Positions 9,018-31,000 of a DNA stretch of 64,000 nucleotides are shown here, piece after piece; the first letter of the stretch is position 1, and every line of letters starts with the position of its first letter. Position numbers and translations under genes: made by a program. Origin of the DNA: an uncultured virus (IMG/VR IMGVR_UViG_3300035662_000013) (taxonomy: Duplodnaviria > Heunggongvirae > Uroviricota > Caudoviricetes); IMG/VR virus record IMGVR_UViG_3300035662_000013; one strand, given 5' to 3'. Under the pieces are notes generated by a model. That model did no database searches. It was not told where the DNA came from and saw nothing but the letters and a program-made list of their open reading frames with translations.

Positions 9018-12000
9018 TTAATAACCGTATTCTCTTTTTATAGAATCCCGAATGTGTTCAGATTTTTTTCTCATTCTTTTTATTTCTTCAGGATCTACGC
9101 CTGCATCTCTTAGCATATTTTCTTTGTCTTGTTTCTTTTGAAGCAATTGCTTAGATTTCTCTCTAGCTCTTGCATTCCAGTTTTCAGGCCAAATAAAATC
9201 TCTAACCCTACTATATGGTATAAACATACTTTCATTTAGAAACGCATCATCTTTCTTAAAGTTGGGATTTCCAATGTATGGTTGATATTGCTTAGCTATA
9301 GGTATGATTTTCAATAATGATTTATCTATCTTCCTAAAGCCTTCATAGTGTCCGGTTCTAACTATGTCTCCATAAGAACCATCTCCAACCATATCTAATA
9401 TCTCTCTGCCTTGTGTAATTATACCTATAGTACCAAATGGTTCTTTCTGCAGATTATAAACATCGGATGGAGACATCATGGCACCAACCTCCATAGTAAC
9501 ACGAGCCATCAATAAATATATTAACATCTCCCATGACTCTTTTATCTTATCATCATCGTCCCCGATTGCGTACTTGCTAAATATAGTTGCTGCAGCAGAC
9601 AATGCTATAAAGAACGTGAATTCCTTAGCAAGCCTTTGTGCTGAGTACCTTTGACTGTACTCGTATTTCTCGTTGACATTTGACATTTTCATGAACAACA
9701 TATTCATCCATATTTTTGGAGCCGTCTTTAAATTACCCCATCTATAGATACCACTAGTCTCTACCCCTAGATCGTACCTATACATTTTTGGATGGAACCT
9801 ATCTTGGATTGCCCACAATAAGTAATTCTTATGTAAAAGCATCATTGAGCCAACTAGATTTCTATGTGCTGCAGTTCTCTCTGTTCCAGTTAACGATCCA
9901 TCTAATTTACGAGACATAGATGCTGAAAGTAAGCTTACTTGATTTTCTAGCTCTGGAGTTATATATTCAGCATATTTTGGATCTATTACTAGATTGTTGT
10001 CAGCAACGCTGTATGCAGAGTATAGTGTATCTTTTATCAAATCCCATTCCCTAGCCCCTTCTTTTCTTTGAGCGCCAGGGAAAAATCTAGTTAAGAATTG
10101 CTCTCTACTATAAAATTCACCTTCATACAACCTAAAGTTGTCTAGTATAGCTATCATAGACGGAGCCTTTATTGCAAAGTCGCCAGCCTCGTATGGGCCA
10201 TACCAGAATTTATCTTCTACATATCTTGCAAATTTCCATCCATGCAAGTTTTTCATATCCGACTCGTTGCTTCTTGTAATGCCAAAATATCTCATAAGAG
10301 ACGTTATCTTATCATTGCTTCTATTAGTGGATGAAGCTACTATGCTAGGCAAACGTAGAGCTATTTCTTTATTAGCAAACATAAGTCCTTTTTCTGTAAA
10401 GAATGAGCCCATTGATGCTTCTATTTTTTGCTGAACCTTAGCACCACCAAAGTTACTGAATATAGATTTTATATTATATCCAAGATTGACTATCCTAGTA
10501 TAAGATATTATTGCCTTTATAAACTTGTCTACAGATACGGAGCCGATTCTACCAGAAGTAACTTTTTCTTTGTTAAACATTCGCCTAATCATATTATATA
10601 GTGACGTAGCGATATTGCCTCTAGATATTGAGAATTCAAGTGCGCTTACTTTATCATCACCATAAACTTCTGAGTTAACAAACTCTGCGGCTTTTTGGTA
10701 CATTCTACCGCCAGTCTTAACCTCTTTCCCTTTTGGATCATGTATCTGAACATTTCTAAGCCCTTCTAGTATAGTTTCTATGGTTCCACGAACCTTAGAC
10801 ATCTCAACGAAATTAAGAGATGACGAGTAATACATAGCAAATGAGCCAAGTAAATCCCTGGATATCATATTTGTATCCTCAAGCATCGTTCTATATCTAG
10901 TTGGTATATGCTTAACAGCTGTGCCGTCGGCATAATATTTACCACTCGAATCTGAATCCCCAATAAATAAATCCTCAGGCATATAATTCATAGAGTCTTT
11001 CAACGCTTTTATAAATCCAGATATCCAATTGCTGCCTCTAACAACCTTTGCAAAGAATGATGTAGATATTTGAGGCAATCTATTTGGATTAGACCTATTC
11101 ATATAGAAGTAGTTCTCATTTGCTTTTTGCATAGCACTTCTATACGCTTCTAAAAATTCCTTATCTTCTTTGTTTGAAGTTAATCTATTATATTCCTTAG
11201 AGTTATCATACATTGAGCGTTTTGGTTGCATACCATATTTCTCTCTAGACTTATCATAATCCTTATTATATAATGGAGAACTTTCGTCTAGCTCTTGCCA
11301 TATGAAGTTCGGAGAGATCTCTATAAACGACTTATTCTTTGGAACTATTTTTGACCAGTGAGAATATAGAGTAAATTTACCTTTTTTATTATAATACCCT
11401 GAATTCTTTTTAAATTCATTCAGAGCATTAACGCCAGCCGATGATTTATCTGCTGATAATCTCTCTATTTCACTATTATAGGCTTGATTAGGAACAACCT
11501 CCGCTATATCTTTAAATTTAAATCTAGCAGTAGATGTTGTCTTAACTCGAGTGTCTGATAGTTTTTTATCTATTCTTTTTATTAGCTCAGCTATGTGCTT
11601 ATTAGCCTCAACCCTTGTACCTATAACCTCCATAGTATTCATATCTCTATTATACTTAAGTAGGTCTTTTCTTATTTGGTAGAGTTCTTTCCATTTCTCA
11701 GATTGCATTTCATTGGCAGATGAAGAAATCATCTCGTAAAACTCATCTTTAAGTCTTACGGTAGTATTCTCTTTCATCCATTCCTTGAACTCAGCTGCAG
11801 TCAAAGTCTTTCTTGCGTTTTCCTTGGCTCGTTCAAATGCATCTACATTGAATTTGTATTTTATACCATCAGTGGTAGCTTTGTAGAATTCTTGAAGTTC
11901 TATCGCTACATTATAATCGTATGAACCTACAGTCTTAGGGGTACCATCAGCGTATGTAAGCATAGATAAGGCTTCTTTTCTCTTCTTTATGTCGAACAAG

Positions 12001-15000
12001 CTTTCCTTATCTTCAAGGGTCATTCTTTCAGTCCTTATTATTCCATTCTCATCTCTGAATTTAGAATAAAAAGATCTAAGTATGTCATCATATTCTGTCA
12101 TAAGCTCTTGTGTTGAAGGACTTATATTCTCTCTTAGCTTATAATACTCAGGAGTGAATATGCGCTCAACGTTAGCCTCCATCCAAGCATTCTTTTCTTT
12201 TTGGAATTCAGCGGCTTCTTTTTCATCAATAGGAATTGCTCCATGACCAGTTAATCCGTATCTGAAATTAAGGTCATTCATAAAGATATCGTAGTTCTTG
12301 TAGAACGAACCATACTTTAAGTCAGACAGAAGATATCCAGTTGTTTTGCCATTGTCATTTTTCTCCATATATCTAGAGAATGTAGCGTACTTTCTCTTAG
12401 CTCTAACAGCGTCCCATTTTTCTTTTAAACCAAGAATCACACCATCAGTCTCCATTGTGCGTCTAGCGTTCATCTTAGCCTCCTCAACCTTGGCAAATAG
12501 TATTCTATGCTGCTCCTTAGGAGACATCACCATCGCACCTACAAGCATTGTTAATTGACCTATGTCGTCGCTCTCGCTAAATACAGTCTGCTCTGAAGTG
12601 TCTGAAGATTTCTTGGTTATACCTTTAACTGTAGTGGATCTATAATTTAACCCCTCTCTCTTTATAGTATTGACATATTGATATTCATTTAGCCCGATAA
12701 GCATTGACTTGATATCATCAATCTCAGACCTAATCTTTCTTACGGTGGCAATAAGACTATCTATATCTTCTTTTGGGAAGCCCTTGGCTATAGACGGAGA
12801 GTCGTTTATAATTGTACTAATAGCAGCTGTTGCTGAGTCATACATAGATAGGAAGTTCTTAGATATATCGAATAACTGCTCATCATCAAGCCATTTGCCT
12901 GTGTTCTTAAGGACTACCATCTTATCAAGCTTGACTCTTACGTCTTTGATTTCATTTGCAGAGAATTCTATAAATTTAATCATGCCAACCATCGCCTCGT
13001 GTTTTTCAACGTCCTTTATTAGCAATTTCAATGAGTCTAGATAGGACTGAGTAACGTTCTTACTTCTCTCTGCTGTATGCAGCTTAGATTTCAATCCAGA
13101 AAGAACCCTATTCATTGTAGCCATTGCTGTAGACTTACTTAATTCATCCGATGTAACCATCTCTGAGTCAAGCATTCTATATGAGACATTAAATGAGTCT
13201 GGGCCTATATCAGCCATTCTGTCTACTGGAAACAAGACTACTGTATTTTCATCTATTTTAGACACAAGCATAGATGGAGTAAATCTCATAATAACGCCAA
13301 TAAACTCAGTTCTATCTGACTTAATTGTAATGGCGCCATCTCCAAGCCTACTAGCGGCCCTCAGAAATGCTATTACGTGAGAGTTTTTTAACCCATATAA
13401 AGTATCGTCAGTTGGGAATTGATATATATCATCAACTTTTTTAAACTCAAAGCGATTTCCTGTTTTTCCATCTTCTACTATTATATCTCTAGAAATAGAC
13501 ATTTTGTATAACTGATGAGAGAATGATGCTAAAATATATGCACAATCATTTTCTTTCTCAATTGAATATTCATTTATTCCATGCTCTATTGCTCTTTGCT
13601 TAGAAGTATCGCTTTTAAACAGATTAAGAAATTCAGCTATAGCTATGTTAGCTCCATTTATTCCCTTTATTTCATTTGTAATCGAGTCGACTGACTTTGC
13701 CATTAAGTCCTTATCCTCTAGAGATAATATATCAACAGCATTCTTTCCGTACAATACATAATCCAGCATATCTCCTATTGATATATATGGATTTATATCT
13801 GTTGGTATGGAGTTGTTTCCAAATATTCTTTTAATAGTCTCTGTCAGAGCTCTTAAAGCTCTAGACCATAAGTATGCTATCTTCCTATTCTCTCTATTGT
13901 TATATTCTTTTTCTATAGACCTAATAATTATTTCATCTCCTACAACTTCATCGTCATATGTTTTTATGGTCTTAGCGTCGTCAATATATGAATTGTTGAC
14001 AGCATTAACTATCTCTGTATTTTTCATTGCCTCCGCAAGTAACGCGTCATATATCTCTCTATGTTTTGGATCTGAGCTTGCTCTTAATGCAAACATCATT
14101 GGGTGACCAAACATTTCATGAATAATATAACTAGGCTTTATTGTATCGTAGAAAAATACAGCGCCTCCAGCTTTATAATATGCTCCTGTATTCATTGACT
14201 TAGAAACTCCATAAAACATAGATGTATTTCTATTCATAACATTGAACTTTACACCAAACCTTCTACTAAGGTCATCGGCTATTCTTACAATGGCCTTTAT
14301 TTGGCGTTTAGAGACGTTCTGAGCCACTTTCTCGGCAGACATGGAGGTTAGCCTATCCTCGTTATTTTGAGTGGCTGAAATCGCCTTAGAATCGGTCGTT
14401 TTTACAAATGCCTTAAATCCTTCTATATCCTGCTTAGAGCCTAAAATATGAATCTGCTCCTTATCGAATACGACGTATTGGTCATAACTCCCAAGCTTAT
14501 CTGAGAACTTATCATTTGTATTTGTCGCTATAATTCCATCATTAGAGCCTTCATTTATCTTTGCTTTTATATATTCAACAGACTCTTTATACTCTCCTTG
14601 GTACAATTTATCAGTAATATCTGGATTTTGTATGTTAACAAGTATAGCCTTTGTTTTTCCTGTAGTACCCTTATTTCTAGTCCATCTGTTTGCGAATTCA
14701 TCTGCAACACTTTTGATTGTGGCAAAAAATCCATGGAACCCACTAGTTCCAAACTCAGGATTGTTAAAATCTGCGGCAGGAGATCCTCCGTGGTATACAA
14801 TGTCTTTTACTTTGCTGTCTGGAAATATCGTTTCTAAATACCGTGAGTACTGTTCCTTTGTTCCAATTTTAGATAATTCTGGATTTTGCTCGAATACAGT
14901 ATTTATTCCGCTGTCATTTCCTGTTGATTTTTTCGGAAGAAGGTCGGATAGATATTTATCAGTAGTAATAACTTTTTCTTTTGGAAATTTACTTACCACT

Positions 15001-16049
15001 TCATTTATTTGAGCCTTCCATTCATTAATATCATACTTAACTCCTCTAGCATTAGCCCTGTCTTTGAATTCTTTATCAGTTAAGTTTATTACTCTATCAA
15101 ATGAAGACGAATTGTTTCTAAGTAAATTAGTGTTTGACGTGAACAGCATTTTACCAGATAAGGCGGCCTCTTTTTTGGCAGCATCAAACAGCCTCTGCAT
15201 CATATCGTTATACTCGACGTTCCATTGCATATTTCCGCCATCTTTCACTAAATGTTCGGCTACTTTATATTTTATCGCAATGGCGCTAACCTCTCTATTT
15301 ATCTCTTCTGCATAGTCGTCATCTAGAGAAATAAAACTATCGGCTCCATTGTTTTTAAGGAAACTTTTTCCTATAGTTGGATGTCCAAATAGAACAACAT
15401 CTGTCTGTTTAATCGAATTTGAAACTATAATCTCATCAGCCTCAGATAAGTCGGACAATCTCTCTTGTGTGCTATATACAGGAGTATCAAAATCAATCTC
15501 GCCTTGCAGCTCTTTTGGCTCATCCAGCTTAGTTATCCATATAACTCTACCTTTACTATTAGGGGACTTTTTAAACGATAAGGAGTATTTACCTTGGATG
15601 TCATTTCTAGACGACTTTTTATTAAACACCTCCTCTATGAATTTAGCCTCGCCTTTTTCATTGTCAGGAAACTTTGAGTATGGGAAGGTTAAGATATTTC
15701 CATCATCATTTAATAGATTTAGTTCTTTATATAAATCCCTATTTGTAGATATAGGCAATATTCCAGCTCCATTATTTACATTCTTCTCGTATTCAGCCTT
15801 ATACTTCTTATCTCCACTAAGTACAAATTTAGAATAGTTAAGTATATCCGGAGTGTCTAAATTTGGCTCTCCATTTGTTTTATCCCAAACTGCGTATGCA
15901 TGTTGCATAGCGAAGTCATCGACCCCGCTACGCTCATCACGCAATTCTTTGTATTTAAACTCATCAATAGTCATTGGTCGACCACCGAACGCTTGAACGA
16001 TCTTATTAAAATCATTCCTTATTTTTTTATCATTAATATTTGGGCACAT
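9018..16049 (-). CDS. Large virion-ejected polyvalent protein (2343 aa) with P-loop, ART-like and zincin modules
   Basis: Downstream of the virion RNAP, as in crAss-like phages. GHPTIGKS Walker A (15363-15386); IVYHGG...GFFAT...NIQNP...DGII...QYVVF ART-like module (about 14400-14910); HEMFGH (14103-14120); hydrophobic helices near the C-terminus. Confidence 0.8.
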   Translation of the reverse strand: MCPNINDKKIRNDFNKIVQAFGGRPMTIDEFKYKELRDERSGVDDFAMQHAYAVWDKTNGEPNLDTPDILNYSKFVLSGDKKYKAEYEKNVNNGAGILPISTNRDLYKELNLLNDDGNILTFPYSKFPDNEKGEAKFIEEVFNKKSSRNDIQGKYSLSFKKSPNSKGRVIWITKLDEPKELQGEIDFDTPVYSTQERLSDLSEADEIIVSNSIKQTDVVLFGHPTIGKSFLKNNGADSFISLDDDYAEEINREVSAIAIKYKVAEHLVKDGGNMQWNVEYNDMMQRLFDAAKKEAALSGKMLFTSNTNLLRNNSSSFDRVINLTDKEFKDRANARGVKYDINEWKAQINEVVSKFPKEKVITTDKYLSDLLPKKSTGNDSGINTVFEQNPELSKIGTKEQYSRYLETIFPDSKVKDIVYHGGSPAADFNNPEFGTSGFHGFFATIKSVADEFANRWTRNKGTTGKTKAILVNIQNPDITDKLYQGEYKESVEYIKAKINEGSNDGIIATNTNDKFSDKLGSYDQYVVFDKEQIHILGSKQDIEGFKAFVKTTDSKAISATQNNEDRLTSMSAEKVAQNVSKRQIKAIVRIADDLSRRFGVKFNVMNRNTSMFYGVSKSMNTGAYYKAGGAVFFYDTIKPSYIIHEMFGHPMMFALRASSDPKHREIYDALLAEAMKNTEIVNAVNNSYIDDAKTIKTYDDEVVGDEIIIRSIEKEYNNRENRKIAYLWSRALRALTETIKRIFGNNSIPTDINPYISIGDMLDYVLYGKNAVDILSLEDKDLMAKSVDSITNEIKGINGANIAIAEFLNLFKSDTSKQRAIEHGINEYSIEKENDCAYILASFSHQLYKMSISRDIIVEDGKTGNRFEFKKVDDIYQFPTDDTLYGLKNSHVIAFLRAASRLGDGAITIKSDRTEFIGVIMRFTPSMLVSKIDENTVVLFPVDRMADIGPDSFNVSYRMLDSEMVTSDELSKSTAMATMNRVLSGLKSKLHTAERSKNVTQSYLDSLKLLIKDVEKHEAMVGMIKFIEFSANEIKDVRVKLDKMVVLKNTGKWLDDEQLFDISKNFLSMYDSATAAISTIINDSPSIAKGFPKEDIDSLIATVRKIRSEIDDIKSMLIGLNEYQYVNTIKREGLNYRSTTVKGITKKSSDTSEQTVFSESDDIGQLTMLVGAMVMSPKEQHRILFAKVEEAKMNARRTMETDGVILGLKEKWDAVRAKRKYATFSRYMEKNDNGKTTGYLLSDLKYGSFYKNYDIFMNDLNFRYGLTGHGAIPIDEKEAAEFQKEKNAWMEANVERIFTPEYYKLRENISPSTQELMTEYDDILRSFYSKFRDENGIIRTERMTLEDKESLFDIKKRKEALSMLTYADGTPKTVGSYDYNVAIELQEFYKATTDGIKYKFNVDAFERAKENARKTLTAAEFKEWMKENTTVRLKDEFYEMISSSANEMQSEKWKELYQIRKDLLKYNRDMNTMEVIGTRVEANKHIAELIKRIDKKLSDTRVKTTSTARFKFKDIAEVVPNQAYNSEIERLSADKSSAGVNALNEFKKNSGYYNKKGKFTLYSHWSKIVPKNKSFIEISPNFIWQELDESSPLYNKDYDKSREKYGMQPKRSMYDNSKEYNRLTSNKEDKEFLEAYRSAMQKANENYFYMNRSNPNRLPQISTSFFAKVVRGSNWISGFIKALKDSMNYMPEDLFIGDSDSSGKYYADGTAVKHIPTRYRTMLEDTNMISRDLLGSFAMYYSSSLNFVEMSKVRGTIETILEGLRNVQIHDPKGKEVKTGGRMYQKAAEFVNSEVYGDDKVSALEFSISRGNIATSLYNMIRRMFNKEKVTSGRIGSVSVDKFIKAIISYTRIVNLGYNIKSIFSNFGGAKVQQKIEASMGSFFTEKGLMFANKEIALRLPSIVASSTNRSNDKITSLMRYFGITRSNESDMKNLHGWKFARYVEDKFWYGPYEAGDFAIKAPSMIAILDNFRLYEGEFYSREQFLTRFFPGAQRKEGAREWDLIKDTLYSAYSVADNNLVIDPKYAEYITPELENQVSLLSASMSRKLDGSLTGTERTAAHRNLVGSMMLLHKNYLLWAIQDRFHPKMYRYDLGVETSGIYRWGNLKTAPKIWMNMLFMKMSNVNEKYEYSQRYSAQRLAKEFTFFIALSAAATIFSKYAIGDDDDKIKESWEMLIYLLMARVTMEVGAMMSPSDVYNLQKEPFGTIGIITQGREILDMVGDGSYGDIVRTGHYEGFRKIDKSLLKIIPIAKQYQPYIGNPNFKKDDAFLNESMFIPYSRVRDFIWPENWNARAREKSKQLLQKKQDKENMLRDAGVDPEEIKRMRKKSEHIRDSIKREYGY

Positions 16050-16069
16050 GTTGTTTTCCTCTTATTATA

Positions 16070-19000
16070 TTAACATTTATCTGACGGTCTTTCATTTCCA
16101 ATCAGACTATTATTTGGTTTAAACGACTCAGGTATTTTAGTTCCATCAGCTGAAACTTGTTTTTTCTCTGAGTTTAATTTTTTAGTATTAGTAATTACAG
16201 TAGCAGTTCTACGAGCTCTAGATACAGCCGTATACAATGCTTTCCTGTAAATTAATCCATCAAAGTTTTTATCTATTCCTCTGAGGTCCGAATCAAGAAC
16301 AAGAACGTTTTGATATTCTCCGCCTTGAGCTTTGTGTACTGTAGATGCGTATGTAAATCCAATAGTTCTATCCTTTAAATTATTTGACGCATTTTCGTTA
16401 TCAGTTAAGCTATTTTTTATAGGTTTAAGCGTAATGAAATCTTTAGTCAATGCAATAAAGAAGTTTCTATTAGCCTCTCTTTTTTCTTGATAGTCCATAT
16501 TACTTATCTCCTGTTTCCGCTTAAGAATAGCCGCTCGTATTGCAAGCATATTCTCTTCGCTATAATCAGTTAATAAATTAAATACGCCTCCAGCGGAAGC
16601 ACCAGTAGTCATTCGTATTTCTATTGGAACAACTTTCAATGTTACTCCAGGCACTGCGTATGACGTAATCTCTCTAGGAGCTCCTATGCTGTCAACAACA
16701 TATTCATCGTCGTTCGCAACCAAGTCTACCTTTCCAGCCTTTATTTGACTATATCCTATGACTTGTTCTCCAACCTCAATCAATCCTTTCTTTCCTAATT
16801 TAGCTCTAACATAGGCATTCATTGAGTCTATTACATCATTTCTAAATGCCAATATCTTAGCGAAATTAACATCCTTAGAATAGTCTTCTGACGTAAAGAA
16901 CATATCAACAAATTGCTCTACTGCTTTCGCTCTATCAGCTTCGCCTACAAATACAACGCCGCCTTGGTCGTTAAATGCATCTCTCTTAGAGAAGATTGCT
17001 TTAGACTGGTCGGTAAAATTATATTCAGTTCCATTGATATTCATAAGCCCAGGAGCCTGATACATTCTCATAATACTTAATACATCTGCTAATGGATTTC
17101 CATTCGCAACACGCATAACCTTATTAAGAACTATGCTGGTTGGAGATTCTAACCCAATTGATTGTTTAGGCATTCCTTTTGCGTCAGTATTTCCAACAGG
17201 ATATAACTGAGCATGATCTCCAATAAACAATACTTTAGCTCCAGTAGCTTCCGCAACTTTAAGTATTTCATCTACACTCTTATCTGAGATTAAAGAAACC
17301 TCATCTATTATATATAGATCTACATTAGATTCATAATTAGTAGCTCCGCCAAACTCAAGCTTCATACCAACCTCTCTGGCCTCTGGGACTAATTGAAAGT
17401 AAGCATGATATGTTTTAGCTTTCTTGCCAGTAGCTCTAGATAATACACCTTTAGCTCTATGTGTTGGAGCTAATAATTGATATGTAATCTCAGCATTGCT
17501 AAGTGCATTTATAAGTACTCTAGTTATGGATGTTTTACCAGAACCAGCAGAGCCTAATAGCGAGAATGGGGTAGTTATTGTTTTATCTTTAACCCATGCT
17601 TCTATTGCTTTCAATGCAGCTTCTTGCTCATCGTTTAATTGATAAGGAATACCAATCTTACTTAAGTCAATATCTTTTCCAAATAGATTTATATCAGCTT
17701 CTGATGGAGTATCAGGCGTTACTTCACTAACGACAGCATTTTCACTTTTTGATTTCAATCTAGAATATGCCTTCTCTGCAGATAACATATTCATATTATT
17801 AAATTCGCCATTTCCTTGCTGATACATTGCCGAAGTCATTTTTCCGTCAACAAATCCAAAAGCATACGTAGTCCCAAATTCAGTGAATCTTTCTTGTGTC
17901 ACTTCCGGCTCGATAATTGCTTGTTCAGTATTTGATGTCTTCGTAAAATCATTTACCTTTAGACTACCATCCTCATTATAATACTTAAGCGAAACAACAC
18001 TGTTATGTCCTGCATAGCAATATACACAGCTACTTGCGCATTTATCATTATATCTTAATGCATCCACCTTATTCCCGTAGCAACTACAATCTTGTCTTTG
18101 ATTTCCTTGGACATGAGTAACATCAGTCCTTCCCATCGCAGCGTTTATAGATTGAACATTTAAACAACCTAATTTTTGAACTCCGTCTACGTTTACTTTT
18201 TCAGCACAAGAACTTAATTGTCGTATTCCATATTTCTTACAAAGATCGCGCATTTTAACACTTAATTCATCTATTATCTCCTGTTTAGCGCTAAATTTAA
18301 TATTGTCATTTGTTTTATATGCTGCAAAATCGTAGCCAAGTTCCTTCATTTTAGCTACTATAAATCTATCGTTTTTAGATCCTGAATAGCTATCCATTAC
18401 ACTGAACTTAATCTGCCTAATTCCCATTTCTGACGCTCTCTTTATTACACGCTCTACGTCATCAAAATTAGTAACTCCTGGAATGATAGGGTCAATCCTA
18501 ACTGTTATTAGATTTGGATTTAAAAGGCCTTCTTTTATAAATGTCTCAATCCTATCTAATAAGTCGTCGTATTTCATAACGCCTGGCTCATACTTAGTGC
18601 CGCCAAGAGTAGTTATGCTGAAGTGATAGAATTTAGGAATTTTTAATTCAGCCAATTCTTTCAATGGGAGTCCGTCATGTTTTGTTATAAGATACATTGC
18701 ATTTACCCCATTAGTCTTTCTGTTGGCTACAATTTCTTTTATTTTCTTAACATGGAATACTGGGTCTGACGTCTCGCTGGCTATAAGTATCTTAGGTTTT
18801 CCTCCATCATTAAATACTTCATTAACAGTTTCCTGGTCTTGCTTACTTAACGATTCTTGTTTTCCCTCTATAGATTTTATAGTAGACTCATGCTCTTCTT
18901 CACTAGCTGTAGTGTTTTCTTGATTTTTAAATGTATTTTCAAACACATCTCTAATAGCCTGTTTTGCGGCATTTTCTTTCTCTATTCCTAAATACTCTTT

Positions 19001-22000
19001 TCTTGGCTCCCACTGATTAGTAGTCTTATTTAAAGTATTATAGTTTTCAATATCTCTAGTACCAACGCCAGCGAAGTTCTTTGTGAGCATAGGAGTGCTT
19101 GTTGGGACAAACTTTCCTACAATCTTATCATCTTTTCGCATTTCCGGAACAAACCGCATCCATTGCTCAGAGGTTACATCCCATACATATACTGGCTTTC
19201 CTAATTGAACTCCTAATTGAACTGCAGTGTTTGTTCCGCCGAACACAGTTCCAGAATTAAATTTGGCATCTCCAGATATTTTTGCTATTGCAAATACAGC
19301 ATCTGCATTAGACACTTGATAATAATTTCTTACTTGCAGGTTGCCTTCTTTTGTATCCGGGTATTTCTTGCCTAGCAATTTCTCTATCTCAGTTCTAGCT
19401 TTATCCATCTGTTCCGTTGTAAGAACAGTGGCTTCAACTTTCTTATTTCTAAGCGCTTGAGATAAAGACTTATTATCTTCTTGTCTGTAATGCCTATTAT
19501 CAGTTACACCATATTCTCTACCAATTTGATCCCAGAAGGTGTCAGCACCATAAGCGCCACCAGAATGATTAGTGAATTCAGATGCAATCGAAATTGATTT
19601 AGCAGTAGACTTTTGATTAAACGTAACAATATACCTATTATCTGATTGACTAAAATTATTATTCTTTCTTATCTCTGTATATCCACTAAATCCAGCCTCT
19701 CTTACCATTTCAAAGAACTTATTCATAAGCTCTATTTTTTCTGGTGTTCCATTATTCAATATATCAAATGGAGATCCATATTTTTCCTGAAATGCTTTAT
19801 ATATCTTATCATAGGCCTCTGTATAGACAGACGTCCCATTGGGTAGTAATTCTGTTTTAAATAAGAAGTTATTTAGGCTTATTCGTTTTTTAGAAACATT
19901 ACTTCCATAATCCCTGGCCTCCTCTTCTGATGTGGAATAGAAATTATATTCTCTATTGTCTGCTACATCAGACTTTCTTCCTTGATATCCAGTAAGCGTG
20001 CTAGATTCGTTAATATTAGTTAAATCCTGTTCGCCTTCTGCTTCTGTAGTAAGATCTGCGTTTAATTCATCTCTAACCTCCATAAGAAGTCGAGGAAATT
20101 CAGTACTCCACTTGCCTTTATCTTGCGTATGAGTAAGTATTGCGTTCCCAGTTGCTAATAATTCTTGAAGTGCATCAGGGTTTTGTTTAAATGATTCTAG
20201 CAATAACTCTTTCATGATAGAAGAAGAGGCTTTATTCCATCTATCTACGTCCAAATGTTTAAATTGTCTTCCCAGGGCTTTGGCCTCAGCAGGGTTTTTA
20301 CTGTTCTGTATTTGTCCAGCCAGTTTCCAATTGAACTCATCATCCTCTTTTGACATCTCATTCCCAAAGCCTCCACCAGACAGCATTTGCGGCTGCCAGC
20401 TACCATCATCTCTTACATTTCCAGTATACGTGTATTTGGCTAATTGGAACGCTTGCTCTACGCTAGTAAAGCTGATATCTCCCTTAATCATATTCAGCCT
20501 AGAGGATCCTGTTGGCAAAGTAAATGGTCTTATTGCGAGATTACTTAAGTTTGCATTTTCTCCAGTACCAGCGTATATGTTAATGCTTCTAGCATTATTG
20601 CTAGGTTGCATTTCTACTTTCCTAATAAATTGTCCTAGATAGGCCTCTGCGCTTGTTTTAAGCTCTTCTAAGGCACTTTCTCTATCTTCCTGGGCAATTG
20701 TATTATCCGGTAAATTGAGTTCGTTAAAACGGCTTAAAATGCCTCTAGCGAATTCCTCCCTCATTGAGGCTATCCTTGCGCTATCTGTAATTCCAGCATC
20801 TTCTATAGCATTATCTAAATAAGACATAGAATAACTATTGTTATCTATTGCATTAGTCACTGCTTTATCTACTGTGCTAGCACCTAAGCTCTCAACGAAC
20901 TTATCTTCAAGACCCATAAACATATCAAACCAGCTTACTTTATCAAATCCAGCCTCTTTCGAGAATATAGATGAATTTATATTTGACTGTGGAAGTTCGT
21001 TTGTCTTTATTACAGAAGTCTTTGAATTAGACTCTATAAGTGCAAGACCAGATGCTTTGCTACCTTTTTTGTCAACAGCAACATATACTGGTTTAATAGA
21101 CACATCGCCTTTAGCATTAGACCTTGTCGAGTTTCCTATGTATTTATATAGTATTTCAAACTGTCTTCCATTGGTGCCTGTCTTGATTATCTTAACGAAT
21201 GGCTTAAATACTGGATGTTTTCCATCAGATGTAGATCCAATAGGTCTAGCAGCAGTGTCTATAAATTCCAATTCATATTCAATACCAAGCATCTTTTTAG
21301 TCGACATTTTCTTAGGTTTCTGATCTACTAATGGATGCCCATCTTCATCAAATTGACCTTTTCTTACTTTATATGCAGTGGTAGTTGGAACTAGTTCATT
21401 ATCCCACCATCTACTAATGAACAAATCTTCCAAGAATTTAACATCATTTTGAAGCGCTACTCCAGGAGTATGTTCATATGATAATTCATTCAGTTCCGTC
21501 AACACATCATCTATAAAGTCGTATAGTGCAATCTTGATTGGTGCTCCAGTATTAGCATCTACTAACCCTGAATTAATCTCCAGTGAAATTCTATCATCCT
21601 CAGATAATTTAACGTAATTTAATGCGCTATTGTCACCAGTGCTATAAAATTGATATAGTATGAATCTCTTAGCAAAATCCTTAAGCATAACCCTATCTTT
21701 ATTTCTAGATTTAAGTGCGCTTATTTCTTGTTCACTAAGGCCTTCTTGCGATTCATCTTCAAGTATTGGATTTAATAATTCAGAAAAATAGTACTTTATC
21801 TTCTCTTGAATATTTTTATCGTCCTTCGCAGATGAGTCTATAGTAACATGGTCTGGATAAGACTCCTCTGATTTACTATGCATAGTATATGACAATACCT
21901 TCAAGAAGACATTGTTTTCATATCCAGGTAAATGACCGTTATTTATAGCAGACTTGATATGGAATAATTCCTTAGCGACAGTGTCTTCTCCAAAGAACAA

Positions 22001-25000
22001 GCTATTTATATCTATATCGTTTTGTTCTGCATATTTTCTATAAAAAGAATCCTTAATTGCCGTCTCGACATACCTTGATACGCCATGCATGAATTTGCTA
22101 TTGTCAAAACCTTCTCTTCCTGCAAGTATATTTACTTTGTTAAGAATAGATAATACTTGTCTAGAGGTTCTAAATAATAAACCACGACTTATTCCTACTA
22201 TTAACCCAGAGCTATTTCTAAGCCTTGCCATCAATGGTGTAGATTCATAATAGTTTCTTACGCCACTAAATACAGACGTTCCATTATCATCATCCAATAT
22301 CAATGAATTTACTTTTGAAATAAACTCATTATTTGCTATAAATGATTTACCTTGTTTTTTGGTCTCAATTTGAGAGTATTTGACAAGCTCAGATAATTCG
22401 TTAGAATATGGAAGTAATTCTAAATAAGTTTCCATTACCAATATCTGGTGCAATAGATAATCAAAATTAGACAAGTCTTTATTTAGGCCAGACTTTAATT
22501 TAGATCTACTATTAAGTACATCTCCTGTCGGCATATCACGTCTACCATATTTATCTTCAACGAATAAAGATTCTACGTATTGAGCGTTTTTACCACCATC
22601 AATTCTAGCAGCCATAGCTCTATATTTCTGTAGCTTGTCCTTTATTACTTCATGCAACTTCTTAACAGAATCTTTATTTACTTCATATTTGCCATTAAAT
22701 TCTTCAACCTCAGCATAAGCCTCTTTTAAAGATGGTTGTGATAAGAAGTAGAATGCGTTTCCGCCAATACCAGCTCTAAGTAAGAATGCAACCATATTAA
22801 CAGTATGTTCATTAACACCTAGTCGTATGATATATGGATCTTTGGCAACGTCAACGTGAGCATTAATCATGGCAGATAGCCAGTCCAATATACGCATTCC
22901 GTCAGCTCCATATATTCCTCCAAGTTCAAATATTCCGTGTTTAGCGGCTGTCCTTTGTTTTGGATTTATAGTCAGATTAGTCATCTGCGTATAAATATGG
23001 TTTGTATTAGCAAGTGCCATTATACCCAAATTCTTCTTGCCTGTAGAATACTCAACTTTCTTATCTGTTTGATATGAAGGTGATGTAAACATAAGAGCTC
23101 CTCGCTTTTCTCCAGTGCCAGTAACTGAGTCTATGTCTGGAAGAATATCGTCCTTTATTACACTAGTAGTAGCATCTAATGGAAGCCTTGTTTCATGTAT
23201 AGAAGATGGCTCTGTTATTGCAGCCATCATTACATCCAACAATCTATTTTGGATAGCAGCATTTGAATTTACTTGCCATTTAGACTTCTCTGGATTCTTC
23301 TCACTTTTCTTGTTGTCATCAAACTCAACCTTTTCGAATCGACCAGCTGGGTTTTTAGCATAGTTATATCTAGCTAAATACAACTTGTCAACGTCAAAGT
23401 CAGAGCCTGTGAGCGCAGTGAATTCTGTTGGAAGAATTATAGTATCTCCAATTATCTTAGGGATAACATCTATAATCTTTAATGATGATACAGATGACAT
23501 ACCTTGAGTTGGAATACGATATCCTAATGCAGCAGGATCTGAGTCAGGACCGATTATATTATGCATTAAAAGCCAATCTCTTTGCTTAACTGGAGACATC
23601 AACTTAACATCCTCTGGCAAAACATCTTTAAATAATGATAGAGAAACGACACAATCCATGCTTCCGTCAGCATTCATGTAATTTAACTTTCTTCCACCAT
23701 TAAGCTTATATCCTTCGCTAGTTATGCTGTCTGTAAGTGTATTTATACCAAATGTAGACATCTGAATAAATGCACCACCTGGGGTATTGACATCAAGAGT
23801 CTTCTTCATAATAAATGAAACAAGTTTGCTCTCAATCCAATCTCTATCAGCCATGGCCTGAAGTGTTATCCTGCTATTTGGCTCAGCTGCCTTCATAAGG
23901 GTCTCGTAGACATCATCAGTCATATTAGACTTGATTGCCTCTGAATGCAAGAATCCGTATAATTTCTTTTTATCGAAAGTCAATACTCCGCCTTCGTATT
24001 TAATTCCTAATTCATTCTCTACATCATTTCTACCCCTATTAGATATCTCTGTTAATGCATTTGACCATTCCTCTATTAACTGTCTTCCTGTAGCACCTTT
24101 ATTTCCGCCTATTGTTATATTTGAATAAACTTTATCTGACACTATATTGGACATTGCAACTTTTTGAACCTGAGTTGCCAATCCAACCTCCTCTTCCTCG
24201 TGAGCTTCAGTTTCAAGCTGATGTCTAAGGAATTCAAAGTGCTGAATTTCTTCTGTAAACTTATCAAGGTTAGATACATTACCGTCTTTGTCAAAGAAGT
24301 CTATTGGATTATTATTCCCAGACTTAACAGCAGATGAGAATGCGACCATATCTATTTTGCTTGCACCATCTTCTGGATTGTTCATCCTTTCATATAGAGC
24401 TTTATTTGCACCTGTAGCGACAGATCTAAATAAACAGAACATTGCCATCTTGTCTAGTTTTGGAATATTTAACCCATTACTGAACTTATCTCCATAATAT
24501 ATCATCTTAAGCGGATTAAGAGCAAGCTCCATCACTTTTAGATATTTAGCAGAATCTTCCATCCAAGACATATCTTCTGATTCCAATAAATCAAATGCCT
24601 CATTTAAGTCTTCATTCCATCTTCCTAATTTTCTAAGTATATCTCTATACATAACAGGAGATATGAACACAGAAGCGTCTGTTTCATTTACTTTATTATA
24701 TCCAGCAGTCTGAGCATCAACTATATTCATTATCATTTTGATGTCTGATAACTTATTTATCTCGTCCATATTTCCAGAATTAATAGCCTCTAATATTTCA
24801 TTAAAAGTCATATTTAATTCATCGCCATGTCTTTCGTTTACATGAGCAGCAATCATCCTTGATTTTATCTCAGATAAATTAGGAGAAGGTATTTCATTGT
24901 CATTTAACTCAGCAGACACAAATGTGGATCTTCCTGTTTCAGATAAACATGGAGTACCTGTTGATAGTATAGAAGATAACCTTTTTATCTTAGCATCAGG

Positions 25001-28000
25001 ATCTTTATGGAATGCAGGGTCTTTTGAGAATATCTTTTCAAATTCTATTGTAGATATGGATGTGTTCACCATATGCTCAGCAACCATATTGTAAATAGCA
25101 GACGTGTCGGCATAGTCACTAACAAGAGATTCTTTTGAGTTTAAATTAGATTGTTTGATGAAGTAAGCTCTAGTATCTTTAAATATAGATTTATCTAGCT
25201 TCTTATTTTTATAGAATACGCCATTCTTTTTGTGCTGTACAGTTATAGCGCCATTCTTAACAAGCCACTTTAATTCTCTAGATATTGAATTAGCCAAGGT
25301 GGCATTCATTATTTGGAATTTAGTTTCATTTGATGCATTGAATATTTTACTATCCATTTCCTCAAAGAATCTAGTCATCCCATTAATTACTCCATATTGG
25401 TCTATCAATTCCTCTTGATATTCATTTAGATTTACAAATGAGCCGTCGCCTTTTATGTCAATAGAAATTTCATCGAAATGCCTAAATTTCATACCATTAC
25501 CAAGTCCTGAATTCCATTTGCCTTTTGTGGTATATTTATTTGCACCTCTTTGTGAGAATCCGCCGTAGTGATATGTTTGTTCTAGTTTATTTTTATTACC
25601 CATTGCAACCTTCCATGCACTCCAAGCATCCTGCATTGCAAGATATTCTGCCTCAAAGTATCCATTGAATATAGCTACTGTTTTTGTAGGGAATGTGATT
25701 GATTGTCTAACTAGCCCATCTTTCAATGAATTCATATCAACAGCAATAGGAGTTCCTTCTTGTTTAGATACGCTAAATGACGGCATTTTAATGCCAGCAA
25801 ACATGTACCACGATTTCTTATCAGCCATAGTAGGACATAACATATATCCAGAATTAGTGGCTGCCATTTTCATCATATAATCCTCCATAGGAGATAGTGC
25901 AAAGTAATCTCTACCTTTATCTCCAGAATTATCTTCATAGAATTTCAAGAATGTCTTAACCTTTAATCCCTTTGATTCACCTGATTGTAATTGGTCTAGT
26001 ACTATAGAGCCTCCAACAGTAGTTCTGTCTCCTTCGAAAGCTGCTCCTCCAATCCTGCCTGAAGCAAAACTAGATTGCATTACTTTATCCCTGTATTCAG
26101 TGTCAGTAGATATTCTTTCTGCCGTCTCTGTCACATAGTTTGGTAGAGATATCTCATATACCTTGGCTCCATCAGCCCCGGTAGAAGTGGTCTCTGTTAT
26201 ATTTGGATTGGCCTTGAAATACATCATAGCTATAAATCCTGTCGACTTCTGAGACTTGTAGATCTCTTTTCTATCTACCTTCTCTTTCCTGTTTACTATA
26301 AGCTTTCCATCATTCTTAACTAGGTCTGTTATGATGTTGGTAAGAACAAATGATGGGTGTTCTGGTTTTGATTGGGTGATTAAACTAGCTATAGCGTTTT
26401 TTCTAGATGCATTTGGATAAGAATGTTTGATTATCTCATCTATAGTTGCATCGTTTATAGATATGCCTATTTTATTAAATATATCAATATACTCATTAAT
26501 AGCAGCAGTAATTTGCTCGTCAGTAATCTTTTCAGCTTCTAGTGGATTTGTTAATCTACCGGCAAATGATACAAGTGCTTTATGTCTGGCTATTATAGAC
26601 TCGGCATTAGCCTTGTTAAATACTGGCCCATCAACACTATCAGAGAATAAAAATCCAATAGACATCATGTTCTCACCCCATTCTTTTGGCTTAGTTATCT
26701 TGGCAGTTGTAGCCTTTGACTCTATAACCCTAAGTCTTCTGTCGGCTTCAGCCATGTTTCCATTTTTGTCTCCAGTAAATGCTATACTCGCAAAGTCATG
26801 TCTATGACATTTTACTGCGGCAAAGAATGCTGTTTTAAATCTATCGCTAGAATTGTCAAGCTTATCTAATACGCTTCTATAGAATAAATTACCAGATACA
26901 ACACCAAGAGAATATATTTTATTCCTCATCTCGGTGTACGATTTCAAATGACCTAAATCGCTTGCAACTGTAACCCACGACGTGGTCTGGTCGTAGAATA
27001 ATTTAAAGCCAGTTAATGGGTTAAATTTATCTACAACAACACCGTCTGCATTTTTCTCTTTTTGAGGGATAGTCCATAAGAAGAATTTAACCTCCATTGG
27101 AATATTATCAGACTTAGGAACCTTATATGATTCTACTGTATGTTTAGCTATCTCGTTACTTACGATATCTTTATCGTTATCCTCTATTTCGTTTCCATCT
27201 ACATCGAATACAGCTGGGGCTATCCCAAATGAAGATAATTCTTTATTTATTAATGGAACTATTTCCTCATCAAATTTATCCAATATATCTTCATATATTT
27301 TATATTTCAATGTATCTTCCATTCCATTTTCTTCCATATATTCATACTCTGCAAGAATACTATCATATAGTACGTCTTTACTCATATTGCGGATATCAGA
27401 AACTTTTTCAACTCCAGATAATTCTATGAATGAGAATGCTAACCCCTTGGCTACTTCGTATTGCATATCCAATGTATTGATAGCATTGAATCCTTTTGAC
27501 TTCAAAGTTCTAGCAGCTCCATCTACATAGAATCTAGTAAAGAATTTAGATTGCTCAGATTTAGCCTTTGGACCTTTTTTGTTTTTAAATATACCGTATT
27601 CGATATCCTCAAATAATCTATTTATATCAGACTTGTTTGCAGACTTCATTCCAGTAAATAGGTTGGAGAATTTTCTGAATACAGATCTAAGCATCGGTAT
27701 CTTAATGCCGATCTTATTAGTCTCTCTCCATACTCTAAATTCCTCGGCTAAGTATTCCTCTATATCCTTATTTGTAGCATCACTCAATGATGGTATAGTA
27801 CGCCTAACTGAGTCATATATCATCATCCTTCTATTTCTTGGTATTAACCCAAGAGACACAATGTGAAATGCTTCGTGGTAAGCAGTGCCTCTTTCTGCGC
27901 CAGAGAATAGTGTAATAATATTCTTTAAGATGTTAGCTACACCCATAGCAATATCACCGTTCTCCATTTCAATTTCAGTATCACTGATTTCAATAAGAGA

Positions 28001-31000
28001 TGATATCCTTTTTCTAGCCCAAGCTTGTTCGCTATTAGTTAAATTATCTTCCTCTGCATGACTAGTTGACAGTCTTGTAGGACCAACAGCATTTACACCT
28101 AAGTCAGATATTTTATCTACATCGCCACTAGTCCTCTTCTTAAATTTCTTCTTACCAGAAACTTGCTCGCTAGCATCGCTTTTAAGGCCATTTTCAGGCG
28201 ATTCTAGCGACTTTTGAGTGTTAGTTGATGTTTCTACTACATCTGCTTTTTGCGTGTCAGAAACAGGCTCTAAAGCGGCTTCTTTGGCATCTGTCTTTTT
28301 CTTTGCAACTTTCTTGATAGTTGGCTTATCCATTCTATCTGCAAGCTCTACATCATTTAAGAATGTATACGGAGATTCAAAGATATCATCGGCAACGTCA
28401 GATATAAGCTTATCGTATTTAACAATCCAAGCTTCCCAGGTTAAACCTAAGTCCTCTCTCTTAATTTCCATTCCTTCAAAGAACTTAATTGATTTAGCTT
28501 CTGGATTAGATCTGAAGTAGTCGGTGATACCTGAAAACACATCAGCCACCTTTCTATTAGCTCCAGTTTGATTCCATAAGTCATGAGCATTGATAGACCA
28601 GTTAAAGTTATTCTTAATGTAGTCTATTATCTGAGCTTTAATTTCAGGAGATATTCCAGCTGGATTTGATATGTCAAACTTAGCTTCTCCTAGATATAGT
28701 GAATTGCCTTCTACGTAGAATTGCTTTGGAAGCAGGTGGGTCAACATTGGCAAGTCCTTCTTATTAATTTGAGTTCTTTTTCCAAAGTTAACTATCTTAG
28801 ACAATAAGCCTTCTGCTGATATACCTAACCTATTAGACGCACCGTCTCCGGCCAAAACAACATTTCCGTCTCGGTCTAACGCTAACTCACCTTTAGACAT
28901 GTTCCAGTCTATAAGTAGTTTGTATATAAATTCTGCAGTATCTTTATCTTCTGAGAATCTACGTTTATTTAATTTTATCTTTCTTTTAGTTCCAAGTACA
29001 GGGTCAATCTTTACTGCAAACATACTACCAGAGTTCTGTTCATCAGTATCACCTATCACTCCGTCAATTCCAACTACAGTAAAATTACCTCTCCACCCCC
29101 TACCGTAAGCTAAGCTTAATGTATTGTTGTTTATAGTAGAGAAATCTCCATTAAAGCCTTCTATTAGTCCTTTGATTTTAGACAGGCTTCTCTGTACCGG
29201 CTTACCATTCTTTCTGTTTAATTTTATCTTAGCTCTACCTATAGATACGCCAGATACAACTAATTCCTTATTAGAACCATTTGCTAAGCTTTCTGCATAT
29301 AAAGCTATTATCTTATTTCTAAAATCAACTAAATCAGCGATATCCTGTTCGTTGAACTTAGGATACATATTGCCATCAGAATCCTCAAACATGCTATTAA
29401 CTGCTATGTTGTGGAAGCTTATATTCAATGGTCTAACTACGCCATTTTTATCTTTTATTTTAACAAATATTGCAGCCTCGTTCCATGAATTAGGATTATT
29501 GATGTCGAATGGGATATAGTCTCCTGCGTCCTTTCTAGATTGTGGCACTTTATCAAAAGGTATTGTAGATATCTCTATTTCAAATGTAGCGCCTTCTAAG
29601 GCTTTTGGAGTTTTTAACCATTTAATTATTTCTGGATTAGACGTAAATAGTGTATGTGGCAATCTACCAAATCTAACTGAGACTTTATCCTCGTCAATTG
29701 TGCCAGGAGCCTCGTCATCTATATTTACAAAGTCAGAAGAATCCTCTTTCTCCATTGCAATAGATATAGCAGCAGCGCCTTTAACTATTTCTGATATCTC
29801 TTTAGACGCTTCTTTATTCTCTTCTTCCTCAGTCTTTTCTGGCTGATTAAGATCTTCTAAATCTTCATTGATATCGATCTCTTCTTCTTTCTTATATGTT
29901 CCAGCAACAATAGCTTTTACATCATCATTAGAATAGGCTATAACTTCCTCCTCTGATTGTGTACCTTCTGCAAAGTCTGCAGCCGAGTTATAAGCAGCTC
30001 TCCATTGTTTAGGGCTAATTCTATCAATAAGACCTGCAAGTACTGCATTTCCTTTCATAGCATCAGATGCATTAGATACTACATCTACGAATGATGTATA
30101 TCCAAGCTCCATAATAACCTCTAGTACCCCAGTCATTGCTGGTAAGAAGTCTTTGCTTGAATATTGCTTTCCAGTAGCATTCATTTTAGATCCAAGAACA
30201 TCCGTGGCAACATCAGCCAAGTGAGCTAGTCTAGCGTTTAATTTCTCCTTAAGCTCGTCTTGTTTGGATTTTTGTGGAGCAGCTTCTTGTGTGATTGGCT
30301 TATTATTTTCGGTGAATACTCCAAATACATATTGGCCGGGAATAGAAAATATTCCCTCATCGATAAGCATATCTGATATTTCATCCAGCTGCCTTACATT
30401 CCCGAATTTTGATTTAGGGAATGCGAATACAATCATCCTGCTAGCCCCTCTATGGCCGTGTCCAGAATTAATACTGTCCATTTGGCTTTGAATAGATTCT
30501 GTATTCCCAAACAATGATGTTCCATTTAGCCCATTCCTTATATCAAACCCTCTTGAAAGAATTTGTTCTAGCCCGACGATATCTGTTTGGTGAGTTACAT
30601 ATATAAAATTATCTGTATCTATTTTACTTAAGTCCAGCACTGGGTAAATTGTCCCATTATTTGTAATTCCTTGTGTGGGAGCCTGCTCCTCCTGATTATC
30701 TGCGGCCTGTTTAGCAGCCTCCTCCTCTTTATCGTAATCGCTAAATGGATCGAAGTTGTCATCTGCTAACAATTCCTCGGCTCTATTTACTGATGAGTTC
30801 AAGTCGGCCTCAGTTAATGGAGGAATATCTGTCTCGTCTAGTGGTGGAACTTGCTCTGTCTCTACTTCTGGAGCAGACTCTAGGCTTTCGTATTCAACTA
30901 TTTCAGGAGCAGATGGTATTTCCCACTTTGGCTCTAATGATTCCAATTCAACTACAATAGGTTCTACAACAGGCTCGGCTACTACAGTTGTTTCTGGCTT

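Follow-up and report, generated by a model that had tools for sequence, protein, structure and literature searches.

Few known phages are as abundant as the Crassvirales, yet little is understood of what their giant virion proteins do besides transcription. One gene in a 64,000-nucleotide stretch of the uncultured virus record IMGVR_UViG_3300035662_000013 from IMG/VR (hereafter the window) raises the question directly: what is a virion RNA polymerase doing in one polypeptide with a whole series of further enzyme domains? The gene is a single open reading frame (ORF) on the minus strand, 16070..34282, which encodes 6070 amino acids (P0001) with zero stops under translation table 11. An earlier note, made from the sequence alone, had described a polymerase that continues in one frame into five C-terminal domains: NADAR, an ADP-ribosyltransferase (ART)-like domain, SLOG, DUF1848 and a Dda-like helicase. 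The frame indeed runs on without a stop, its last ~1500 residues hold the toolkit, and all five assignments hold, that of the ART-like domain by fold only. We find that the four domains preceding the helicase form a cassette of ~900 residues between the polymerase body and the helicase, and we consider it fairly probable that this giant virion protein carries a polyvalent toolkit that acts early in infection.

A giant polymerase gene in the virion block of a crAss-like phage

Judged by its genes, the window comes from a Crassvirales-like phage. Terminase, portal, major capsid protein, tail fibre and crassvirus muzzle protein are all encoded on the minus strand (PHROGs and Pfam), the capsid protein being up to 73% identical to that of human-gut Suoliviridae such as cr118_1. 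The giant gene belongs to the virion/cargo block; it is found downstream of the muzzle gene, after two smaller ORFs, and its synteny with the giant genes of cr118_1, cr50_1, cr109_1 and cr56_1 identifies it as the giant virion protein of the 'transcription block'. The products of those four genes measure 4328-4946 aa and bear annotations that include 'DNA helicase', 'DprA-like DNA recombination-mediator protein' and 'nuclear pore complex protein-like'. In the window the gene is open without interruption over 18.2 kb at a guanine-cytosine (GC) content of ~36%; from its composition, the origin of a 6070-aa frame by chance is effectively impossible.

Residues 3017-3643 (23354..25234; this and all features described below lie on the minus strand) match the virion RNA polymerase gp66 of phage phi14:2 (PDB 6vr4) with E 2.7e-42. 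The sequence DFDVD at residues 3628-3632 (window positions 23387-23401) means that the DFDxD catalytic motif is present, and by these matches P0001 contains a two-barrel RNA polymerase core of the phi14:2 gp66 type. A tblastn query with residues 2601-3800 reached the giant gene in 135 phage records; megablast found no match for the region in 50,697 phage records. Pfam and PHROGs found nothing in residues 1-4400. The earlier note had placed the toolkit after the polymerase core, which is right as to its C-terminal location; the two are not contiguous, since ~750 conserved residues intervene. A conserved segment of ~75 aa also precedes the helicase.

A modular cassette between polymerase body and helicase

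The organization of the C-terminal region is best seen by comparison with a close relative. P0002, a protein of 5209 aa encoded on a 95-kb contig, is 89% identical to P0001 over residues 1-4575 and 92% over residues 5464-6070. The shared sequence ends at ...FIRKVEM (residue 4558) and restarts near residue 5460, with a 26-aa acidic linker in place of the ~901 aa that lie between these points in the window. P0002 is thus without exactly the ~900-aa NADAR–ART–SLOG–DUF1848 block, which is therefore a modular cassette (residues 4559-5459; 17906..20608) between polymerase body and helicase. Between close relatives the cassette is present or absent as a unit. Acidic linkers, which the earlier note had seen between the domains, occur at just two junctions (residues 4727-4762 and 5127-5152) and are missing from the others.

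That the middle 900 aa are missing in a close relative would also be expected if the fusion were an artefact of assembly or frame that joins unrelated genes. Against this, the 18.2-kb frame stays open, and the junctions at 17906 and 20608 are covered by Logan contigs of runs that belong to different studies; these contigs show 0 differences and lack alternative joints. Both junctions are bridged by contigs of X7 (16000-18928 and 19034-21022) and of X8 (17032-19842 and 20136-21066), and the junction at 17906 also by one of X16 (17800-18102). In the four runs examined there were no joints that skip the cassette, a variant that contigs cannot prove absent. The same domains stand in one frame within other giants, and the cassette equals the remaining ORF in GC and codon usage (cosine 0.962, against a 5th percentile of 0.961 for body chunks of the same size). 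An artefact is, on this evidence, extremely improbable. The codon usage and GC likewise give no sign of a foreign origin of the cassette.

Domains of the cassette

The NADAR domain (residues 4576-4721; 20120..20557) scores 49.7 bits against Pfam PF08719, for which the cut-off is 35.1, and matches PDB 8bau (E 7e-5) as well as YbiA (2b3w). Its E4609 and K4616 lie 7 apart, which is the spacing of E88/K95 in the E. coli C7 NADAR (a motif match, not a structural alignment). Schuller et al. 2023 describe E88/K95 as catalytic and NADARs as enzymes that reverse guanine ADP-ribosylation. Phage NADARs are reported to strip ADP-ribose from DNA and to neutralise DarTG1, an anti-DarT1 role for which the published evidence is experimental, and most NADARs are described as single-domain proteins. 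The phage anti-DarT factor AdfN and the NADAR antitoxins of DarG1 type belong to the same family and have the same-spaced conserved Glu/Lys pair; they are free-standing, whereas the predicted NADAR of the window is embedded in a 6070-aa virion protein.

The putative SLOG/DprA-like domain (residues 4896-5100; 18983..19597) was recognized through PHROG 768 'DprA-like' (residues 4901-5032, E 1.4e-10) and through a motif. The latter is a SGGAYGAD loop at residues 4907-4914 (19541-19564), a Gly-rich nucleotide loop after strand 1 being what we take to be the SLOG signature. The corresponding loop of a bona fide cpYpsA domain, found in the giant P0093, reads SGGQSGGD, and that domain has no detectable similarity to the SLOG domain of the window. 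Viral SLOG, NADAR and Macro domains are described as co-occurring or fused, and have been predicted in print to process ADP-ribose derivatives.

The segment between NADAR and SLOG (residues ~4762-4891; 19610..19999) had been called ART-like. It has no Pfam hit, ART-PolyVal (PF18760) included, up to E 10, bar a CdiA tRNase match at E 0.21 that we treated as noise. An exhaustive phmmer search with a limit of E <= 1e-3 retrieved 44 homologues, carried by proteins of 109-5227 aa; these homologues define a family with the motifs YQG, R..NYfT, EA..YG, FDILDN, KGYxG and YxVxF and the invariant residues Y4766, Q4767, G4768, R4777, E4788, Y4792, G4793 and D4840. ART-PolyVal proper adjoins the YQG domain in 9 of the 44 homologues, and members of the family adjoin SLOG or NADAR in P0122, P0134 and P0163.

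The AlphaFold2 model of this domain (predicted local distance difference test, pLDDT, 81.9) has an ART fold. In a VIA structural search of 48,161 chains its top match was the anti-CRISPR protein 6kyf_A, of AcrIF type and presumably ADP-ribosylating (Z 8.0, 114 residues, root-mean-square deviation 4.1), and the second a cyanophage pre-ejectosome protein (9k3a_B, Z 7.6). Named ADP-ribosyltransferases and ART-type toxins dominate the list, among them MbcT (5.7), NatT, diphtheria toxin (5.5), ParT (5.3) and PARPs (4-4.8). In BFVD the model matched 'PolyVal ADP-ribosyltransferase' proteins (E 1.4e-4, probability 1.00) and the virion RNA polymerase (vRNAP) protein of an N4-like phage (E 0.016). The ART-PolyVal active site consists of H in strand 1, Y in strand 2 and D in strand 5 (Iyer et al. 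2017, PMC5512222); in the YQG family the aromatic residue of strand 2 (NY motif) and an Asp ahead of the final strand are conserved. Because the fold matches ART and Gln sits at the position of the strand-1 His, we place the segment in an ART-fold family separate from ART-PolyVal, a placement that relies on the model for the fold. Membership of ART-PolyVal itself was rejected (hhalign probability 0.4, no Pfam match). The window's domain would thus share a minimal ART fold with 6kyf and PF18760, and differs from them in lacking sequence-level membership and in having Gln for the strand-1 His.

The DUF1848 domain (residues 5149-5445; 17948..18838) scores 67 bits against Pfam PF08902 over residues 5179-5424 (cut-off 30.5). 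C5415-x3-C5419-x2-C5422 (18017-18040) and four more Cys are invariant in 20 sequences, namely that of the window and 19 homologues; this CX3CX2C has the spacing of radical S-adenosylmethionine (SAM) enzymes but a C-terminal location. The AlphaFold2 model (pLDDT 71.9) is an alpha/beta barrel most similar to pyruvate formate-lyase activase (Z 9.9/9.4), lipoyl synthase (9.0) and spore photoproduct lyase (8.8), the last also matched by Foldseek (probability 1.00, TMq 0.44). The NCBIfam radical SAM family PA0069 matches with E 0.0024, and several homologues carry the JGI name 'DNA repair photolyase'. Stand-alone DUF1848 proteins are found on large contigs (31 matches, 163-520 aa). The PADLOC profile RTasDUF1848 matches the domain with E 1.3e-22; RTasDUF1848 is an accessory of a defence reverse transcriptase system, and the domain therefore appears on both the host-defence and the phage sides.

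Helicase and pre-helicase segment

The C-terminal domain is an SF1B helicase of Dda/RecD type (residues 5536-6040; 16163..17677). Over residues 5545-6034 it matches PHROG 325 'Dda-like helicase' (E 2.9e-58), Pfam AAA_30 (89 bits) and UvrD_C_2 (44.9 bits), NCBIfam RecD2 and the PDB entries 3upu, 3e1s and 9kwf (Dda, RecD2), and its motifs are intact: Walker A GSAGSGKT, Walker B IIDEVS and motifs III, V and VI. It is a lineage-conserved part of the protein, present in P0002, cr118_1 and cr50_1. The conserved pre-helicase segment of ~75 aa (residues 5460-5535; 17678..17905) recurs in P0002, P0003 and P0005.

Distribution among giant relatives

Proteins of 3338-10623 aa were searched for relatives (978 candidates scored, 196 matches at E <= 1e-3), and the 120 matches listed were surveyed for the toolkit domains by local jackhmmer. 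The resulting frequencies do not measure prevalence, because the relatives were selected by similarity to this very region. The polymerase core was found in 113 of these 120 proteins, SLOG in 111, the helicase in 83, NADAR in 70, DUF1848 in 39, ART-PolyVal in 9 and the YQG family (phmmer and jackhmmer) in 0. NADAR, SLOG, DUF1848 and helicase occur together in 19, with shuffled orders, and in 4 they are joined by ART-PolyVal. Toolkit domains lie N- or C-terminal of the polymerase and in many orders; the giant polymerase proteins of crAss phages have in many cases the same domains in reshuffled form. None of the 120 has the exact order RNAP-NADAR-ART-SLOG-DUF1848-helicase, which occurs in the window alone. 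The earlier claim that the architecture was new accordingly survives for the order and not for the repertoire, which is common in these giants. An AlkB-like 2OG-Fe(II) oxygenase domain in the giants P0026, P0042, P0114 and P0163 adds a further DNA/RNA repair enzyme to the variable repertoire.

The zero for the YQG family probably understates its presence, because protein databases contain the proteins of TAG-recoded phages in pieces. The IMG/VR loci L005 and L006 (1-8982) carry a relative's giant polymerase gene with 31 in-frame TAG codons and one TAA terminator. It is open only if TAG is read as Q, and therefore belongs to a TAG-recoded crAss-like phage. Its C-terminus holds DUF1848, an unassigned stretch of ~150 aa, NADAR, the YQG domain and SLOG, with no helicase. 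The NADAR–YQG–SLOG trio is collinear between L006 and the window at 31-36% identity, close to the 38% of the polymerase core; DUF1848 is 58% identical.

The N-terminal region and the genomic neighbourhood

A HEAFH motif (HExxH, zincin-like) lies at residues 2136-2140 (27863..27877) and was recognized as a sequence motif, with no profile match. It is compatible with an upstream gp65-like protease protein having been fused to the polymerase, for which there is no supporting profile; Drobysheva et al. state that the gp65 orthologue has a zincin. In the N-terminal third, residues ~1190-1330 (window 30290-30710) form an island of ~150 aa between low-complexity linkers. An Atlas query with residues 1165-1345 gave weak ART leads only (Tox-ART-HYD1, PARP) with few shared features, and the island may be a second ART-like domain.

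Downstream of P0001 lies a giant partner ORF of 2343 aa (9018..16049), syntenic with the neighbour gene of cr118_1 (BLASTP E 3e-115, 27% identity), in which zero Pfam or PHROG families were found. It aligns with its cr118_1 counterpart of 1667 aa only from ~residue 950 and has ~580 additional N-terminal residues. In cr118_1 and cr50_1 (MT774379.1, MT774375.1) the major capsid protein matches in two pieces, between which an HNH endonuclease is annotated in cr50_1; the capsid gene of the window is undivided.

The phage genome is one contig of 85,865 bases. All 24 lake-water metagenome runs listed (24 studies) contain part of the stretch, and in 14 of these 24 at least half of the sampled words were found. 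The phage thus occurs in lake-water runs, whereas its nearest named relatives are human-gut Suoliviridae.

Relation to known polymerases and polyvalent proteins

The polymerase orthologue forms part of the virion and is transferred into the host, and in phi14:2 it is packaged in the virion (Drobysheva et al.; Yutin 2021). In PhiCrAss001, three polymerase-associated giants have been reported in virions by mass spectrometry and are thought to traverse the tail partly unfolded. With phi14:2 gp66 the window's protein shares a homologous two-barrel polymerase, the DFDxD motif and the same virion/transcription gene block; gp66 has 2194 residues (PDB entry), whereas P0001 fuses an upstream HExxH region and ~1500 aa of enzymes to the polymerase. 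Syntenic giants in the Suoliviridae (cr118_1 QOR58373.1, 'DNA helicase'; cr50_1 QOR58058.1; cr109_1 YP_010112503.1, 'DprA-like') are without the NADAR–ART–SLOG–DUF1848 cassette. In cr118_1 and cr50_1 Pfam recognizes the C-terminal superfamily 1 helicase, and only that.

A closer parallel in logic is offered by the polyvalent vRNAP proteins of N4-like phages described by Iyer et al. 2017 (PMC5512222), in which the polymerase is fused to a zincin and in some phages to an ART. These proteins are encoded among late virion genes, are delivered with the virion and were proposed to act at entry. Their polymerase, unlike that of the window, has the unrelated T7-like single subunit fold, and their ART site is H-Y-D where the window has Q for H. 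As in polyvalent proteins, many predicted enzymatic domains are joined in the single chain of P0001, whose gene stands among virion/late genes.

What is new in P0001 is correspondingly narrower than first thought: a fusion of vRNAP, zincin and ART had already been described for N4-like phages (Iyer et al. 2017), and GenBank relatives were already annotated 'DNA helicase' or 'DprA-like'. The text of that study (PMC5512222) has zero occurrences of NADAR, DUF1848, SLOG, radical SAM or crAss. Yutin 2021 mentions 'several large, multidomain proteins' in crAss-like phages; in the text of the crAss polymerase literature, as distinct from the domains drawn in Fig. 3 of Yutin 2021, we found no account of NADAR, SLOG, DUF1848 or ART, and a literature search joining crass terms with NADAR, DUF1848 or ART-PolyVal gave nothing relevant among the papers listed. 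The protein is a variant of the polyvalent virion protein theme, with a domain set common in giant crAss polymerase proteins, in an exact order that among the relatives surveyed is confined to the window.

Discussion

How might such a protein work? By analogy with its orthologues, it would travel inside the capsid and be ejected before or together with the DNA, and its C-terminal extension would act early as a polyvalent toolkit. The helicase could open or clear the incoming template for the polymerase. NADAR might remove ADP-ribose from DNA bases, as placed there by DarT1-type defence, or cleave ADP-ribose derivatives, while SLOG might bind or cleave nucleotides derived from nicotinamide adenine dinucleotide (NAD) or ADP-ribose. 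The Gln-variant ART-like domain could bind NAD/ADP-ribose or modify a host target, and DUF1848, radical-SAM-like and with a C-terminal Fe-S motif, could reverse a DNA lesion or modification.

Several points weigh against this early-acting toolkit. The earlier note had taken the packaging and ejection of crAss polymerases as established, which applies to the orthologues of phi14:2 and PhiCrAss001; for the C-terminal region of P0001, packaging, ejection and enzymatic activity are predictions. According to Drobysheva et al., giants that are fused are 'likely cleaved into individual components', so that the extension could be lost before packaging. Within the domains, the third of the catalytic NADAR residues, which is E, D or H in phage members of the family, could not be placed, LTHTQD at 4716-4721 facing VEHTEN of YbiA in uncertain register. 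SLOG is the weakest of the five calls because Pfam cpYpsA reaches E 0.11, below threshold; one PHROG profile and the motif support it, and a search of the segment against PDB sequences gave zero meaningful matches. The YQG domain may be non-catalytic, since the strand-1 His of ART-PolyVal is replaced by an invariant Gln (Q4767) and the ART-PolyVal sequence tests failed. In the DUF1848 model the Cys region has a pLDDT <50, and Z scores of 8.8-9.9 are common among barrels and hence not decisive for radical SAM. The domain frequencies, drawn from relatives chosen for their likeness to the region, are subject to the limit given above.

The extension may instead serve the phage's own genome entry and early transcription and have nothing to do with counter-defence. 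The helicase would then draw in or melt the template on behalf of a polymerase with a preference for single-stranded DNA; DUF1848 would repair environmental damage to the injected genome, such as that from ultraviolet light, and NADAR, the ART-like domain and SLOG would process NAD-derived RNA or DNA ends. This fits the conservation of the helicase across the lineage (P0002, cr118_1, cr50_1), the reported need of the related polymerase QDE-1 for a helicase and RPA, the name 'DNA repair photolyase' of DUF1848 relatives together with spore photoproduct lyase among the best fold matches, and the presence of the phage in lake-water runs. It fits less well with a cassette that is dispensable in a ~90% identical relative and with domains that have been gained, lost and shuffled, a pattern that typifies conflict genes and not core machinery; an anti-DarT1 role of phage NADARs, moreover, has been demonstrated in published work, and DUF1848 doubles as an accessory of a defence reverse transcriptase system. 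We consider such a housekeeping role unlikely. Less likely still is that P0001 is a polyprotein whose C-terminal enzymes are freed by proteolysis, stay unpackaged and act late, for example by repairing or demodifying progeny DNA before packaging. The gene does sit in a late structural operon, the HExxH motif is present, cleavage of fused giants has been thought likely (Drobysheva et al.) and DUF1848 also exists as 31 stand-alone proteins; but in N4 the virion polymerase is packaged, zincin included, in unprocessed form (Iyer et al. 2017, PMC5512222), PhiCrAss001 virions are reported to hold all three polymerase-associated giants, and domains like ART-PolyVal are described as typical of virion-delivered polyvalent proteins.

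We therefore retain the early-acting, virion-delivered toolkit as the favoured account of the extension. A bolder version of it, which we put forward only tentatively and regard as doubtful, is that polyvalent injected proteins have arisen in a second, independent lineage, that of the giant polymerases of crAss virions. NADAR, the Gln-variant ART and SLOG would then form a conserved three-domain ADP-ribose module, in which the ART-like domain would be a partner that binds NAD/ADP-ribose without transferase activity or has a new chemistry, and DUF1848, as a radical-SAM enzyme in circularly permuted form, would undo a DNA modification inflicted by defence.

Two poorly known families gain a lead from this analysis: DUF1848, which is seldom mentioned in the literature searched, and the YQG ART-like family, which escapes Pfam. 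The main interest of the finding lies in the cassette indel, by which the hypothesis can be tested, the presence or absence of the cassette between ~90% identical phages being a natural experiment for its role. If the extension is delivered with the polymerase, a crAss-like phage would bring ready-made enzymes against NAD/ADP-ribose-based immunity and DNA damage into the cell before phage gene expression, a parallel to the polyvalent polymerases of N4-like phages, whose polymerase scaffold is unrelated.

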